The notes: a model not told the origin generated them from the sequence alone. Numbered from the stretch's first letter, positions 22,853-37,899 are shown. The stretch is 64,000 nt of DNA from Kofleriaceae bacterium (GCA_965215005.1 CBDCCZ010000010.1:64001-128000), one strand, 5' to 3'. Numbers and translations: made by a program.

Positions 22853-24010
22853 TCATGGCGCGGTGTCAGCGACCTGAATCTGCAGCTGATTGCCCAGCTC
22901 GCGGAAGGCGATGACCCCTGGCGCGTCGTAGCGCGGAACCAGGGCAATGGCGGTGCAGTCGGAGATGCCCCACGCCGGATGCGTGTCCTCCAGGCCCCGC
23001 ACGCGCTTGCCGGTGGCCAGGTCATAGACGAAGTACTGGCAGCGCTCCGGGCGCATCGACATGTCAGTGTCCTTTGCGGGCACGTGCTCGAACAGCCATA
23101 CCAGCCCGTCCGTCACGCCCAGCCACGAAAACTCGGGGGATACAAGCGATGGAATAGGTACAACCCTCAGCGGTTTGCCGGCACGACTCTCGTATACGGA
23201 GATCTTACTGCAGGTCTCACAGCGATCAGGATCCTGAAGAAGCAGCGCGAACCGCTCCCCGTCAACGCTATAGACAATGCGACCATGCCCGCCACTGGCT
23301 CCATCTAATCCAGGATCTAGGTCGTGCTGCCAAATGACGCTACCGTCGTCGGTGTTCCGTGCTTGAACAGTTTCCTTGCGTGAAGTGTCCCTCAGCAAAA
23401 CAAGGAATTGCTTTGCGTTGGGAGCGACCACCGCTGCCGCCACACCCGTCCCCTTACCCAAAGAAACGACCCAAACAGGATCTCGTTGTTCTGGCTTGTA
23501 CCAGTGTAGAGCCCCCCATGTCCGCGCCGGTCCTGACACCGTCCGCAGTAGCCCTGCTTCCAGCTTTCCCGGCGCGACGCGCCATAGCGTATTTTCCGAC
23601 CAGGAATAGTCGCCGCGATCCGTGGATTCTTTGGCGTCTGAGCCAATTAGCTCGGGGGCCAGATAGTACAAGGAGCCATCGAGGGAATCTGCGCGGACCG
23701 TATTAGCCTCCACTGTGTGAAACCTGAGCAAGGCATCCGCGACCAAATAGCCTTCCGCCACTTCAGGGACACCCATTTTGTCAATGTGGAAGATGTGGCC
23801 CGGGACGCCCCCGCCGGGGAGCTGCACTGCGACCGCACCCTTGGGTCCCGTAGCGACCATTCGCTGTGGATCACCGATGGTTGCTGGCACACCGACACGA
23901 TGAAGCAGAGTAGGCACGGGCGGTAACACTTCGTTTTGAGGTTGACGAGAGGATCCGCAACAGCAGGAGAGAATCAACACCAAGGCGGCAGCACTGGCGT
24001 AGTGCATCAT
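22853..24010 (-). CDS. Putative immunity lipoprotein, distal copy (beta-propeller-like)
   Basis: MMHY...ILSCCCG signal/lipobox; paralog of the next two genes; ATG overlaps the toxin-tail TGA. Confidence 0.75.
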   Translation of the reverse strand: MMHYASAAALVLILSCCCGSSRQPQNEVLPPVPTLLHRVGVPATIGDPQRMVATGPKGAVAVQLPGGGVPGHIFHIDKMGVPEVAEGYLVADALLRFHTVEANTVRADSLDGSLYYLAPELIGSDAKESTDRGDYSWSENTLWRVAPGKLEAGLLRTVSGPARTWGALHWYKPEQRDPVWVVSLGKGTGVAAAVVAPNAKQFLVLLRDTSRKETVQARNTDDGSVIWQHDLDPGLDGASGGHGRIVYSVDGERFALLLQDPDRCETCSKISVYESRAGKPLRVVPIPSLVSPEFSWLGVTDGLVWLFEHVPAKDTDMSMRPERCQYFVYDLATGKRVRGLEDTHPAWGISDCTAIALVPRYDAPGVIAFRELGNQLQIQVADTAP

Positions 24011-24186
24011 CCGTCGATGATCTTTCTCAGCCGGTCGAGCTGCGAGCTCGAGAGGCAGTTCCACATATCGTCGTCGGCGACCCACCAGCCGTGCTTAAAG
24101 TCGCCCTCCCATGCGTGGCCCTCATTGTGGACGGGCGGATGCCTGCGCAGGTCCGAGGCAACTCTCTCAGCGAGTCTGCCGTTCAT
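24007..24186 (-). CDS. 59-aa mini-ORF ending in a duplicate of the toxin 1 C-terminus
   Basis: MNGRLAERVASDLRRHPPVHN fused to EGHAWEGDFKHGWWVADDDMWNCLSSSQLDRLRKIIDG*, identical to the last 38 aa of 26783-29350; expression unproven. Confidence 0.5.
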   Translation of the reverse strand: MNGRLAERVASDLRRHPPVHNEGHAWEGDFKHGWWVADDDMWNCLSSSQLDRLRKIIDG

Positions 24187-36600: not shown

Positions 36601-37899
36601 GGGACCGCTCCGTTGCCGTGGAAATGCGCCCGGAAGCTGGCCGGTTAGGCCGTGGGCGCGCAAGATTTCCAGGCTGTGGACGGTTTGGGCGCGCAGCTGC
36701 TCGAGCTCGGCGGACTTGCAGTGGAGGGCGTATGCCTCGGCGAGAAGCGCGCAAACCGCGCCCACGGTTTCGTCGGCCGCTGCCAGCACCTCCTCGACGC
36801 CGGTGTTCACGGCGGCGCTCTGCATGCCGAGATAGAGGCCGGCGCGAATCATCTTAGTGTCGGGACCCAGCACCCGACGACGTAGGTCGGCAGTCAGACG
36901 GCCCCGAAGCTCGTGCGTTAATTTGTTGGCCCGATCGCGGGTGGTAAACAGTAGCTCGAGCCTAGAGGCGGCTTCTCGCCGTGCCTTCTCTGCGGCGGAG
37001 ACCGGTGGCGGCGGGCCGCCCTCGAGCTCTTCGAGAGCATTCGCGGTCTCGAGCCAACCATCGACGCCAAGCCCGTCGAGCTCGAGCACTCTGCGCCAGT
37101 GGTCGGCGCCCAGCTGTTGCAGATACGCCTCCCAGTGGGCGCGGCCAAGACGAGTATCCCCGAGCTCGTACGTGGCAACCGCGAGCCAGAGCTGGTCGTC
37201 GGCGGTGTTTGCTGGCTTCGTTGGCTTCGTTGCTGGGGCCTCGGCTGGCGCGCTTGTAGAGGTTGCCGAGGATGGTGCTGCTGGCCCGGTCGTAGGAGTC
37301 GTCGCGGATGCGGCTACTGCCGCGGTCGTCGGAGTCGTCGGTGTTGTCGCGGATGTGGCTGCCGGCGCGGTCGTTGGTGTCGCTGCGGCGCCCGCTGGTG
37401 CACGACCGGCCGCCGGTGCGACGCCAGCGGCGCCCAAGGTCTCGGGCCCGACGATGCCATCGACCACGAGCCCGCGCCCGCGTTGAAAGTGCGCAATGCG
37501 CAACGCAAAGGCCGTGCTGCCGACCTCGAGCCCCGCTGCATCGAGCTGCTTGGGTTGCCAACCACGCCGCTCTTGCCCACGCGGATTGAGACGCTGCGCC
37601 CGCGCGAGCTGCCGCGCGTCGAGCAGCGGCTCCACTTCGGCGCTGCTACTCGCATCGGCGGATTCGCGCTGCTGCACCGCATCCCCCGATGCCTCCCGGC
37701 CCCAACGGCTCCAGTCAACGCCGCTTCTGCCGCGCGCCTGCAGGTGGTTCGGCAGCGATGGGTCTGGCCCTCCGCCGCGCCGCTGCATCTCGGCAATCTC
37801 GGCAATCTCGGCCGCTCGGTTGCCCTTGCCCGGCACTCCTTGCCGCTGTTCCGCCGCCGGCGTCTCGCCGTGCCCACCCCTTGGCCGATATCGCTTCAT
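33682..37899 (-). CDS. Multidomain DUF4157 toxin: PG-binding, DUF4157, 3 annexin-like repeats, HExxH metalloprotease (toxin 2)
   Basis: FQRGRGLVVDGIVGPETL; TTAHEVAHVLQQ; AMSGWGTNED, AMAGWGTDED, AVAGIGTDEA; VRHEIAHAVE and downstream PAEFFAEAY. Confidence 0.8.
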   Translation of the reverse strand: MKRYRPRGGHGETPAAEQRQGVPGKGNRAAEIAEIAEMQRRGGGPDPSLPNHLQARGRSGVDWSRWGREASGDAVQQRESADASSSAEVEPLLDARQLARAQRLNPRGQERRGWQPKQLDAAGLEVGSTAFALRIAHFQRGRGLVVDGIVGPETLGAAGVAPAAGRAPAGAAATPTTAPAATSATTPTTPTTAAVAASATTPTTGPAAPSSATSTSAPAEAPATKPTKPANTADDQLWLAVATYELGDTRLGRAHWEAYLQQLGADHWRRVLELDGLGVDGWLETANALEELEGGPPPPVSAAEKARREAASRLELLFTTRDRANKLTHELRGRLTADLRRRVLGPDTKMIRAGLYLGMQSAAVNTGVEEVLAAADETVGAVCALLAEAYALHCKSAELEQLRAQTVHSLEILRAHGLTGQLPGAFPRQRSGPTPELGDRPGDANVRPNRRAPSRSSELGDQAGDAIVIHEGPAAERIDVAALGLDPSAPESYDTYRARGLAAYGAGNDELAAAYGLLMDRAAARERGESARHPHAPVQRRSNAIAAEDVQAAAAEGIATPAQSLPHLERLQPAFQGHDLTTIRAHVGSDAARSATAMGAEAYATGEHIVFANTPDLETTAHEVAHVLQQRDGVQLRGGIGQVGDPYERQADAVAANVAQGRPVALAASASSAVPGGVQRRSWQMDIKTDLYVAMSGWGTNEDAIYRRLSHATLPELRQVFADAKLMAELRSELSASEMTRVLDLLHAPLADKLRLAMAGWGTDEDYIHRSLATATPAELQLVAADAALVRRLMDELSGDDLRGVLDRVGVSLRIKLTWAVAGIGTDEAYLFAALSSAPIAEVTAVAADAALVARVDSDLSGKDHARWRGTLAARLYNEASDALAAMRMLSGDTEPRRQRLARVGALDVQRALLDAVIVVGAAPPALLLEAFQAYWDVETAVAEGATAWPPETLRQIHVQMKSLPDQDTRSGVWRQLTLTGNAALTNRAAWNGGAGNFSVGANAAQNVASNQTRLTSNAAAGDTTLQVANAAAFGARSDISIGEGPNRELARVKAVAGTSYTLAQPLAYAHNTGEQLLPVSSEYGHGTRLSAAAAVGDPDIAVTEAARFAVGDVVAIDRATPTPDVATIAAIAGNRYTLTKTLQHAHALQARVTPDDATAAHQANWLAATVRHEIAHAVETALGGVTGFTEGLGGWWTGTDFDTWAGQMASPWATNDGSVISNEDRQAIKTAIIDAVQSTPSGGRSLWDSVTPLHAVRKHWGKSVPVILAADASLGRGDGFFVEPNALYQSNGKRFTISNWYKKFMYHNEEVVSQRVADYGVYAPAEFFAEAYTVFYEEAGRPGIADADLGRMIRNEAWRAWIRNNVHNRGHGPGAPRDGALPPASGPAASGGASFGRASRNSGP

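Follow-up and report, generated by a model that had tools for sequence, protein, structure and literature searches.

We identified an island of candidate toxin and immunity genes on the minus strand of a 64-kb window, the window being the whole stretch of 64,000 nucleotides that was analyzed. The island likely represents a polymorphic toxin system, probably carried by an extracellular contractile injection system (eCIS), whose orphan immunity cassettes were built up through displacement and unequal recombination, with a stub of the toxin gene kept by the overlap of start and stop codons. On this reading the stub has no dedicated function, and such a toxin-end scar before spare immunity genes is already known from other bacterial weapon systems. 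The host is a probable member of the Myxococcota, and the toxin families are found mainly in records from this phylum, in agreement with the myxobacterial setting proposed in an earlier note on this DNA. The features of the island are collected in Table 1.

Table 1. Features of the toxin and immunity gene island, with positions counted from the first nucleotide of the window
Feature	Position	Strand	Description
toxA	33682..37899	-	1405 aa; no signal peptide; Pfam and AF2 model
immA1	32977..33666	-	229-aa lipoprotein, LLAGC lipobox; candidate cognate immunity gene of toxA
toxA-like 3' relic	32558..32790	-	Diverged; directly before the immA2 ATG
immA2	31850..32557	-	235-aa lipoprotein, CAGC; candidate orphan immunity gene
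toxA fragment	31339..31391	-	53 nt, 91% identical to internal toxA 35269-35322
toxB	26783..29350	-	855 aa; no signal peptide; Pfam and AF2 model
immB1	25623..26786	-	387 aa, lipoprotein-like; candidate cognate immunity gene of toxB
junction 1	25395..25622	-	111-nt spacer 25512-25622, then stub 25395-25511 overlapping the immB2 ATG
immB2	24235..25398	-	387 aa; 81% identical to immB1; candidate orphan immunity gene
junction 2	24007..24234	-	Spacer 24124-24234, then stub 24007-24123 overlapping the immB3 ATG
immB3	22853..24010	-	385 aa; 75-76% identical to immB1/immB2; candidate orphan immunity gene
toxB-like remnant	1015..1283	+	Part of a second toxB-like gene, 21 kb away

Both toxin genes encode a PF13699 (DUF4157/eCIS_core) domain. 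The Pfam match covers residues 570-633 of ToxA (E 1.8e-13) and residues 129-195 of ToxB (E 2.9e-12), with scores of 50.9 and 47 bits, respectively, against a cut-off of 22 bits, and the HExxH of the domain reads AHEVAH in both translations. ToxA consists of a weak PG_binding_1 match, PF13699, annexin repeats, a small beta-barrel, a C-terminal HExxH...E zincin and a disordered 28-aa end. In ToxB, PF13699 is followed by roughly 600 aa of C-terminal domain, which has a zinc PLC / P1-nuclease-like core, and the protein ends in an annexin-repeat-like module. The earlier claim of two DUF4157 toxins with different C-terminal domains is borne out. Neither C-terminal domain is named by Pfam (for ToxB, PF13699 was the only family found at E up to 0.01) or by NCBIfam, and a sequence-level search of the PDB gave no relevant match for either.

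The last 305 aa of ToxA were modeled by AF2 with a pLDDT of 85.3, and Foldseek gave no match to this model below E 1. The best structure match, to model residues 64-276, is the catalytic centre of anthrax lethal factor (2l0r, Z 7.9, rmsd 2.9, 83 residues aligned), followed by 1yqy (Z 5.7), Certhrax (5.7), PPEP-3 (5.5) and PPEP-2 (4.9), all of which lie below the Z of 8 under which the search tool's own flag rates a match as middling. The motif HE[IV][AG]H is kept in 19/19 homologs of the domain, and H73, E74, H77 and E227, the last a presumptive metal ligand, are invariant across 17 aligned sequences. The domain is predicted to be an HExxH...E metallopeptidase resembling the M34 peptidases (the anthrax lethal factor catalytic domain and the Pro-Pro endopeptidases), which supply its best structural matches, and its HExxH...E columns are conserved. 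However, there is no sequence-level match to this group in Pfam, NCBIfam or PDB, and Z reaches only 5.5-7.9, a range that takes in the PLC/P1-nuclease matches of ToxB.

For ToxB, the AF2 model of residues 240-855 has a pLDDT of 91.7 and is without a Foldseek match. Model residues 9-370 best match 1olp (Z 7.5, rmsd 4.5, 166 residues aligned), followed by SmNuc1 (8qjl, 6.7), B. cereus PLC (1ah7, 6.6), Listeria PLC (5.9) and S1/P1 nucleases (5.7). PLC and P1/S1 nuclease chains make up six of the top 14 structure matches (Z 7.5-5.7, 151-166 residues aligned), all below Z 8 and so middling by the same flag. Model residues 530-616 match an annexin repeat (1bo9, Z 5.9). The domain has 76 homologs, found behind DUF4157 or other N-termini, and in an alignment of 33 sequences H156, H183, H208, D212, H218, H297, D298, D320 and E100 are invariant. 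Based on the models, we predict that the domain is a hydrolase of the zinc phospholipase C / P1-nuclease-like type and carries an annexin-like membrane module. This fold is the best structural match of the domain, and the family has conserved His/Asp/Glu columns; however, the ToxB domain is approximately twice the size of the PLC core and has no sequence match in Pfam, NCBIfam or PDB. The PLC-like and HExxH protease assignments of the earlier note appear to hold at the level of motif and fold.

Polymorphic toxin systems, in the Zhang/Aravind usage, combine a conserved N-terminal region with alternative C-terminal toxins and carry an immunity gene directly downstream. By sequence comparison, ToxA and ToxB have a conserved N-terminal region with alternative C-terminal domains. 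The N-terminal 751 aa of ToxA share 86% identity with a second toxin, encoded on contig C23 of the same genome, while the C-termini of the two are unrelated. The identity ends after ...LPRVLDLLxAPL, at the end of an annexin repeat, and the conserved N-terminal region up to this motif appears to be the upstream handle for toxin-domain swapping. Contig C23 also carries an orphan (L001 9384-11207) with a truncated DUF4157, the ...VLDLLxAPL junction, a new whole C-terminal domain and its own lipoprotein gene.

Rhs and CDI proteins have a constant N-terminal region and a C-terminal toxin that varies, with an immunity gene alongside, and the orphans found downstream retain a piece of the constant region that serves as a recombination handle. 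The C23 orphan is similar in retaining a whole toxin domain with a piece of the constant region. However, Pfam finds no Rhs/YD repeats, VENN motif or two-partner secretion signature here, the junction ...LPRVLDLLxAPL falls at the end of an annexin repeat, and most orphans of the window keep a short 3' stub alone. The contrast that the earlier note drew between a module of about 40 codons and the orphans of Rhs/CDI systems is not supported, as the same genome has this whole-domain orphan as well as a 125-codon toxin stub on contig C23, and in another genus a duplicated immunity gene (89% identity over 723 nt) is preceded by a stub of 58+26 nt.

Immediately after each toxin gene lies a gene that would encode a periplasm-facing lipoprotein, the putative cognate immunity protein. 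The start of immA1, which belongs to no Pfam or NCBIfam family, lies 15 nt past the toxA stop codon, and the immB1 ATG overlaps the toxB stop codon (ATGA). An immA homolog is directly downstream of a toxA C-terminal homolog in 13/19 loci of the same bacterial family, and a toxB C-terminal homolog is directly upstream of an immB homolog in 9/11 family loci; it is by this position and conservation that the downstream genes are recognized as immunity genes. The ORFs downstream at 16 family loci are 336-430 aa long, most with canonical lipoboxes. Toxin stop and immunity start overlap or adjoin each other (offset -4 or -1) at 10 of these 16 loci, a count that may be inflated because the first ORF start codon was taken. 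Immunity proteins diverge faster than toxins, with 59% toxin identity against 37% for the immunity protein in one other genome. The lipoprotein gene noted earlier after each toxin is confirmed, and the pairing recurs in other genomes. Toxin and immunity genes may be co-transcribed and translationally coupled, with the toxins acting in the periplasm. The coupling role given earlier to the toxin 3' tip is retained as far as the start-stop overlap goes, but not in the sense of a designed module.

An N-terminal DUF4157 is a known eCIS toxin signature in the available text of PMC8213781 and PMC11297309, which also describe an antibacterial role with occasional immunity genes, and many eCIS toxins with none. 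The available text of PMC11297309 places 88% of published eCIS toxins within ten genes of the operon. The association between DUF4157 and eCIS invoked earlier is supported by a PVC/Afp-like eCIS locus in the same genome, on contig C40, encoding Pvc16_N, two sheath proteins, gp19, CIS_tube, GPD, two Phage_base_V proteins and gp25. ToxA and ToxB resemble eCIS-associated DUF4157 toxins in having the PF13699 HExxH N-terminal to the toxin domain, long linkers and an eCIS operon in the genome. However, the toxin islands are not beside this operon in the assembly, being on other contigs (C10 for the window island), and they stand out for their lipoprotein immunity genes, orphan arrays and toxin-domain swapping. 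The 18 flanking ORFs scanned in the window, up to 43680, include one AAA ATPase and no sheath, tube or baseplate gene. Delivery of ToxA and ToxB would most likely be by the PVC/Afp-like eCIS of contig C40.

At locus A, immA2 is 35.6% identical to immA1 over 225 aa and up to 38.9% identical to immA homologs of other genomes, approximately the same level. It is preceded by about 41 in-frame codons (32558-32704, IRNNVHNRG...GRASRNPGP, ending in TAG) that abut its ATG. This part of the relic is 50% identical to toxA residues 1353-1405 (E 5.6e-4, HMM/BLAST) and lies within a 59-codon open frame; beyond it the relic continues only as a frame-shifted DNA trace, to approximately 32790. A direct repeat, D5, is found at the relic (85% identity over 40 nt). 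The toxA fragment downstream of immA2 is apparently another recombination scar. For both immA2 and the C23 stub, a related toxin gene would have been displaced or deleted, with its 3' end alone remaining.

This arrangement resembles arrays in the Vibrio cholerae T6SS, for which the available text of PMC5361080 gives a model of sequential displacement, in which the 3' end of an effector gene can move back along with the old immunity gene. The mechanisms proposed there are homologous and homology-facilitated illegitimate recombination, and the arrays are proposed to protect against kin that have retained different effectors. As in those arrays, which have one live effector and then several immunity genes with effector 3' ends, we find several immunity genes behind one effector together with effector 3' remnants. 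Such remnants in immunity arrays are thus already on record in the available text of PMC5361080. The island differs from the Vibrio arrays in the DUF4157 domain of its toxins and in the lack of a T6SS marker, as TssC was not found in the genome, which is 92.8% complete. In addition, the Vibrio arrays, in the same text, hold unrelated immunity types with nearest relatives in other strains, whereas locus B has one family with a homogenized junction block.

At locus B, immB1-3 sit in a 1388-nt periodic repeat and encode proteins that are 75-81% identical. The stubs correspond to the last 38 codons of toxB and its stop codon (26783-26899), which encode the second half of the terminal annexin-repeat-like module, and recur once in each junction. 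The peptides of the three copies are identical and every pair differs at 2/117 nt, for which the probability is at most 1e-6 (two or fewer differences) at the divergence of the neighboring immunity genes (15-25% nt). The spacers of junctions 1 and 2 show 0/111 differences. Across the whole junction block (immunity 3' end, spacer and stub) there are 7/404 differences, with 98-100% identity. The immB cores, in contrast, differ at 21-30% of nucleotides, with dS of 0.7-1.1 (0.45-0.67 for the whole gene) and omega of approximately 0.25. Their site patterns are clustered, with 151 runs compared with 197.9 +/- 8.1 in 10,000 permutations, none of which was as low. We read the near-identical junction block beside divergent cores, together with the mosaic site patterns, as the result of recombination or gene conversion.

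Unequal crossing-over and gene conversion between the repeated units could have built locus B, with the repeated junction block of approximately 400 nt becoming a favored site of further exchange. The stub would be kept because the start codon and translation initiation region of the immunity gene lie inside or abut the last codons of the toxin gene, so that only cassettes keeping the stub stay expressed. The earlier proposal of a recombination handle at the toxin 3' tip stands in that the junction block is a recombination site, whereas the handle for domain swapping appears to be the conserved N-terminal region. Similarly, the tails of about 40 codons claimed earlier are indeed present before the extra paralogs, but stub length varies and most related loci are stubless: none of 50 toxB-family loci has a stub and 18/19 toxA-family loci elsewhere lack one. 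The arrays are not invariant across the toxA- and toxB-family loci compared, a variation for which the earlier note had proposed looking.

Alternatively, the stub, with the spacer mini-ORF of locus B, could be a dedicated portable leader, selected for coupling translation of each added immunity gene and for serving as a recombination handle in the capture of new ones, which corresponds to the interpretation in the earlier note. The junction block is the best-conserved part of the array, and an in-frame ATG within the spacer opens a 59-codon ORF through spacer and stub that terminates at the ATGA shared with the starts of immB2 and immB3, a start-stop overlap that is frequent in the family. In addition to the 100% identity of the stub peptides, the three substitutions among the stub copies are all synonymous (P 0.007-0.027 without selection, n=3), and the stubs could still be translated and under selection. 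However, three substitutions are too few to bear the argument, and the non-coding spacer and immunity 3' end are as conserved as the stub, which gene conversion fits better than selection on the peptide. The stubs are also unlike in each case (38 codons, about 41 with upstream frameshifts, 125 codons, 58+26 nt), the only plausible start codon of the locus A stub is an internal GTG, and almost all related loci have no stub. We consider a dedicated leader unlikely. A narrower version, in which the locus B stub and spacer form a living leader mini-gene that is kept identical by gene conversion against toxB and drives the orphan immunity genes through the ATGA overlap, is in our view rather improbable.

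We likewise give little credence to the view that locus B is no more than a single immunity gene duplicated in place long ago, its tandem copies having since diverged, with neither displacement nor import and no special role for the extra copies. The regular 1388-nt period would be expected from such a duplication, and the low omega indicates purifying selection keeping the immB genes as proteins. In all collections searched, each of the three paralogs is closest to the other two, with the next relative at 38-39% and the genus represented by this genome alone, so that import from other strains and old in-place duplication would look the same. However, divergence alone cannot yield a core dS of 0.5-1.1 beside 0-2% in the non-coding spacer and stub, and the mosaic site patterns require later exchange. 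The last copy, immB3, has no trailing spacer, and the spacer has no match in toxB upstream of the stub, in the DNA past immB3 or in the rest of the genome, which plain tandem duplication does not predict. The toxB-like remnant fuses the upstream region and first codons of a toxB gene (87% identical to 29328-29485) to an internal 108-nt piece (96% to 27453-27559); at 87-96% identity it points to a second toxB allele formerly in the genome. Tandem duplication also leaves locus A unexplained, where stub and immA2 are both strongly diverged.

Both immunity-spacer-stub junctions are crossed by contigs from the probable source run, in which neither conflicting joints nor loose ends are reported; a contig from run X1 (25449-25728) crosses junction 1 and one from run X2 (24092-24393) crosses junction 2, each with 0 differences. 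Because the assembly was probably made from this run, the bridging contigs are not independent support, and at only about 5x depth with no single contig spanning the array, immB copy number and order rest on the assembly. An artefact of the metagenome-assembled genome is highly improbable, for although the genome is in 62 contigs and six pieces can be placed in two positions, the array units differ by 17-23% overall and would assemble apart, and similar stub-plus-immunity structures occur on another contig of the genome and in another genus. The tails do not appear to be the assembly artefacts that the earlier note had named as grounds for giving up its reading.

We therefore favor an origin of the island through displacement and unequal recombination, in which immA2, immB2 and immB3 would be orphan immunity cassettes that widen protection against the variant toxins of competing relatives. 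If the stub and spacer of locus B were in fact a living leader, contractile-injection toxin loci of the Myxococcota would have an integron-like capture of immunity cassettes that proceeds by homologous recombination, without an integrase.

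The two toxin loci lie in a stretch of lowered G+C content (59–62% across 22853–37899 versus 65–70% in the flanks). Locus A consists of toxA followed by two candidate immunity lipoprotein genes (immA1 and immA2), and locus B consists of toxB followed by three (immB1, immB2 and immB3). The immB genes form a periodic repeat of 1388 nt whose proteins share 75–81% identity. Both toxins belong to PF13699 (eCIS_core), the family formerly named DUF4157; ToxA and ToxB each contain an AHEVAH motif, and their translations have no N-terminal signal peptide. The two toxin genes, the lipoprotein genes and the stubs of toxin 3' end preceding the extra immunity genes had been described in the earlier note, and Pfam matches, translations and repeats confirm them in place. 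Of the 18 flanking ORFs scanned, most belong to the ordinary chromosomal repertoire (kinases, transporters, trehalose enzymes, a 5'-3' exonuclease), and none is an integrase. The gene separating the loci encodes a Cys-rich, right-handed beta-helix protein with a 44% identical paralog 14 kb away (14252–16000, minus strand). The direct repeats D6–D8 in the window were taken as chance.

Coordinates and properties of the genes of the toxin island
Feature	Coordinates	Strand	Description
toxA	33682–37899	-	1405 aa; PF13699 eCIS_core match (Pfam)
immA1	32977–33666	-	Lipoprotein gene 3' of toxA
immA2	31850–32557	-	419 nt beyond immA1; 35.6% identity to immA1
beta-helix / choice-of-anchor Q gene	29442–31325	+	Convergent; between toxin loci A and B
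toxB	26783–29350	-	855 aa; PF13699 eCIS_core match (Pfam)
immB1	25623–26786	-	First unit of the repeat after toxB
immB2	24235–25398	-	Second unit of the repeat after toxB
immB3	22853–24010	-	Third unit of the repeat after toxB

Neither toxin C-terminal domain (CT) and neither lipoprotein has a family name in Pfam or NCBIfam. PDB sequence and profile searches returned nothing relevant for the toxins, Foldseek gave zero PDB matches at E 0.001 or better for the ToxA-CT and ToxB-CT models, and the ESM Atlas held no usable match for ToxA-CT. The last 305 residues of ToxA were modelled with a pLDDT of 85.3, the final 28 residues being disordered. Residues 64–276 of this model best match the catalytic centre of anthrax lethal factor (2l0r, Z 7.9, 83 aligned), followed by Certhrax, 1yqy and Pro-Pro endopeptidases (Z 5.7–4.9). 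These M34-type matches, together with an HExxH motif kept in 19 of 19 ToxA-CT homologs (18 of 18 without the unpublished locus G037), support the protease-type domain claimed in the earlier note. H73, E74, H77 and E227 are invariant in the toxA-family alignment. Most titled records of this family bear the label Kofleriaceae, Haliangiales, Myxococcales or Myxococcota, which makes the label 'myxobacterial' plausible.

The toxA-family alignment also shows a conserved end (33685–33810 in the window): the last residues, G-[RK]-x-x-x-N-P-G-[PM], are kept across homologs of 45–63% identity and follow a disordered Pro/Gly/Ala-rich linker of variable length. This tail could serve as a C-terminal signal or a processing site, or could be constrained by the translation start of the immunity gene. 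In a record from another genus (L118) the toxA homolog at 5955–8587 reads as two overlapping ORFs (5955–7307 and 7154–8587), through a frameshift or a sequencing error. A further Myxococcota record (L149, 7336–12663) carries three complete toxA-family genes in tandem, with an annexin-like N-terminus and a zincin domain. These toxins are 46–47% identical over the last 127 residues and are followed by one 207-aa immA-like protein that has no signal peptide. This locus repeats the toxin gene, the opposite of the immunity arrays in the window.

Residues 240–855 of ToxB have 76 homologs, about half of them with PF13699 and the others, such as Nostoc records, without it. The best named relative of ToxB-CT is a Haliangium ochraceum protein at 65% identity. 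A model built on a 33-sequence alignment reached a pLDDT of 91.7, and an exhaustive aligner matched its residues 9–370 to clostridial alpha-toxin (1olp, Z 7.5, rmsd 4.5, 166 aligned), SmNuc1 (Z 6.7), the Bacillus cereus and Listeria PLCs (Z 6.6 and 5.9) and S1/P1 nucleases (Z 5.7), scores that are middling by the aligner's own caution. Because a single superfamily recurs among these matches and many His, Asp and Glu columns of the alignment are invariant, it is reasonable to regard the modelled domain as PLC/P1-nuclease-like; either a lipid or a nucleic-acid substrate would fit. The earlier proposal of a PLC-like domain is tentatively supported as to superfamily. The last 87 residues of ToxB match a single annexin repeat (1bo9, Z 5.9, 70 aligned).

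The pairing of toxin and lipoprotein recurs in other genomes. Homologs of immB occur in 12 of 138 genomes of the same bacterial family, and in 9 of the 11 loci fetched (8 of 10 without G037) they directly follow a toxB-CT homolog. Likewise, an immA homolog follows the toxA-CT homolog in 13 of 19 loci. Of 80 metagenome loci, only 3 gave an immB homolog by tblastn, and position-based ORF calls were used instead. The ORFs downstream of the toxin in 16 toxB-family loci encode 336–430 aa, mostly with canonical lipoboxes. Their start lies 4 or 1 nt before the end of the toxin stop codon in 10 of 16 loci (9 of 15 without G037), a count possibly inflated by use of the first start codon of each ORF. 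In one genome the lipoprotein diverges faster than the toxin (37% versus 59% identity). By position, conservation and faster divergence, the adjacent lipoproteins are candidate immunity proteins, and a periplasm-facing partner would fit toxins acting on the envelope. In the ESM Atlas immB1 gave only leads below 0.9, to PD40/PQQ beta-propeller clusters, which we treat as a lead and not a result. A word-index homolog search with immB1 recovered its own genome's three paralogs only. The next relative beyond immB1–3 is at 38–39% identity, and the window's genome is the sole member of its genus; with no close relative, import and in-place duplication of immB1–3 both stand.

In locus B the last 38 codons of toxB and its stop codon recur 5' of immB2 and of immB3. 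This stub corresponds to the second half of the terminal annexin-like repeat, and each copy ends in an ATGA overlap with the immunity start codon. The three copies of the toxB end show pairwise 2 differences in 117 nt and encode the same peptide. Each repeated stub is preceded by a 111-nt spacer. The two spacers are identical (0/111 differences) and resemble neither the part of toxB that lies upstream of the stub nor the DNA following immB3; the rest of the genome has no match either. Locus A has a stub of about 41 in-frame codons directly before the ATG of immA2 (TAG-ATG). Its product runs from a conserved IRNNVHNRG motif through a Gly/Ser-rich linker to the conserved end GRASRNPGP and is 50% identical to the ToxA end (E 5.6e-4); upstream of these codons there is only a trace of frame-shifted DNA. 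Contigs from a public run holding 92% of sampled words tile the region in pieces at a depth of about 5. Two of these contigs, one per junction, bridge the immunity-spacer-stub junctions with 0 differences, and no conflicting joints or loose ends are listed at the region among them. The run is probably the assembly's own source, and its contigs support the junctions and not the copy number.

The stub is best read as a recombination scar that retains a translation start, and not as a fixed module. Four results argue for this: stub length varies, stubs are uncommon, locus B is a mosaic, and other scars lie nearby. A second island of the same genome, on contig C23, contains a toxA paralog that is 86% identical over 751 aa before an unrelated C-terminus with its own lipoprotein gene. 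It also contains a classical orphan, in which a truncated DUF4157 and the junction ...LPRVLALLNAPL lead into an entire, different toxin domain, accompanied by a further lipoprotein gene. The third element there is an immA-like gene preceded by 125 codons of a toxA-like 3' end (78% identity). In L118 the immA-like gene is duplicated (89% identical over 723 nt), and 58 nt from inside the toxin gene, fused to its final 26 nt, stand in front of the duplicate. None of the 50 toxB-family loci with at least 1.2 kb downstream showed a stub after the toxin gene; these remained from 91 submitted after removal of those with no match, no stop codon or a short flank, and a few are duplicate sequences. Among 19 toxA-family loci a second immA gene is present in two and a stub in one, so the arrays do vary among relatives, as the earlier note had expected. 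Its proposal of a dedicated tail module of about 40 codons is not supported, given the range of lengths (38, about 41 and 125 codons, and 58 + 26 nt) and the toxB-family loci without a stub. Short matches to the toxin end in L130 (43 nt, 79%) and L132 (30 nt, 87%) were not counted as stubs.

The second DUF4157 island spans 4501–14296 of the locus taken from C23 (contig positions 100000–119000), with a duplicated fragment (11834–13030) of an 885-aa gene that lies upstream at 906–3563. Its immA-like gene (13404–14296) is split into two overlapping ORFs, one comprising a signal peptide and the domain start and the other the complete domain without a signal peptide. The gene may be disrupted or chimeric.

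Units of locus B differ at 7 of 404 positions in a block comprising the last 150 nt of the immunity gene, the spacer, the stub and the first 30 nt of the next gene. The immB cores differ at 21–30% of nucleotides (dS 0.7–1.1, omega about 0.25). At 15% divergence, two or fewer differences in 117 nt would have a probability of 1e-6. Parsimony-type site patterns in the three units also cluster (151 runs versus 197.9 ± 8.1, none as low in 10,000 permutations). From this comparison of sequences, the cores appear to be old or imported alleles under purifying selection, and the junctions, the live toxB end included, appear to have been recently exchanged or homogenised. The spacer is missing after immB3, and integration or unequal exchange at the stub would fit this better than one plain tandem duplication. 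Other fragments in the window are a 53-nt piece of toxA (31339–31391) and a toxB-like remnant (1015–1283, plus strand), in which the upstream region and first codons (87%) are joined to an internal 108 nt (96%). The remnant adjoins a gene for a 1093-aa AAA+ ATPase with a winged-helix variant domain (1307–4585, minus strand). eCIS operons include an AAA ATPase, and the pair could be what is left of a toxin-loading neighbourhood.

Retention of the stub can be explained by the immunity start codon, which overlaps or abuts the toxin stop codon; a cassette without the stub would lose its translation start region. None of the promoter-like or terminator-like sites picked up in a scan (totals of 3 versus 1.8 expected and 19 versus 10.2 expected, respectively) falls in a spacer or junction, so the simplest assumption is a shared transcript from the toxin promoter. 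Alternatively, the 59-codon ORF running through spacer and stub might itself be translated and under selection. The three substitutions that separate the stub copies are all synonymous (P 0.007–0.027, n = 3). However, the non-coding spacer is as well conserved as the stub, and we consider this explanation improbable. The TGA stop of immB1 is in frame with the spacer and stub ORF (25395–25625), such that read-through would fuse them; the chance of coincidence is one in three.

An N-terminal DUF4157 domain is a hallmark of eCIS cargo, and most such toxins adjoin an eCIS operon, as outlined in PMC8213781 and PMC11297309. The genome has nine PF13699 matches and, on contig C40, a PVC/Afp-like locus with Pvc16_N, two sheath proteins, gp19, CIS_tube, GPD, two Phage_base_V proteins and gp25. 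The toxin islands and this eCIS are on separate contigs that the assembly does not join. TssC had no match in the genome, which is 92.8% complete. We regard eCIS as the likeliest delivery route, at about an even chance. Outside the C40 locus, two ORFs (420 and 380 aa) carry two gp19-type tail-tube domains each (C23, 134003–134857; C4, 45444–46301), one of them about 20 kb from the C23 toxin island.

eCIS toxins are mostly discussed as anti-eukaryotic cargo. According to the accounts in PMC8213781 and PMC11297309, many DUF4157 eCIS toxins have no immunity genes. In Vibrio cholerae T6SS arrays, as summarised in PMC5361080, incoming effector-immunity modules displace old effectors while the old immunity genes stay, sometimes with the effector 3' end, and homologous recombination is frequent. 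The arrays in the window match that picture. Among the titles returned by a literature search none describes immunity arrays at DUF4157 toxin loci, but the search was too limited to show that no such description has been published. The orphan immunity cassettes are neatly preserved with their effector 3' remnants, and the setting is new: DUF4157 toxins of a probable Myxococcota genome. The island also yields two toxin domain families that Pfam and NCBIfam do not name, each paired with a conserved lipoprotein. It offers two candidate toxin-immunity pairs, and the three immB variants form a natural series for mapping specificity. The island suggests that DUF4157 toxins serve in Myxococcota as weapons between bacteria, in an arms race that is recorded in the same way as in T6SS, CDI and Rhs systems.
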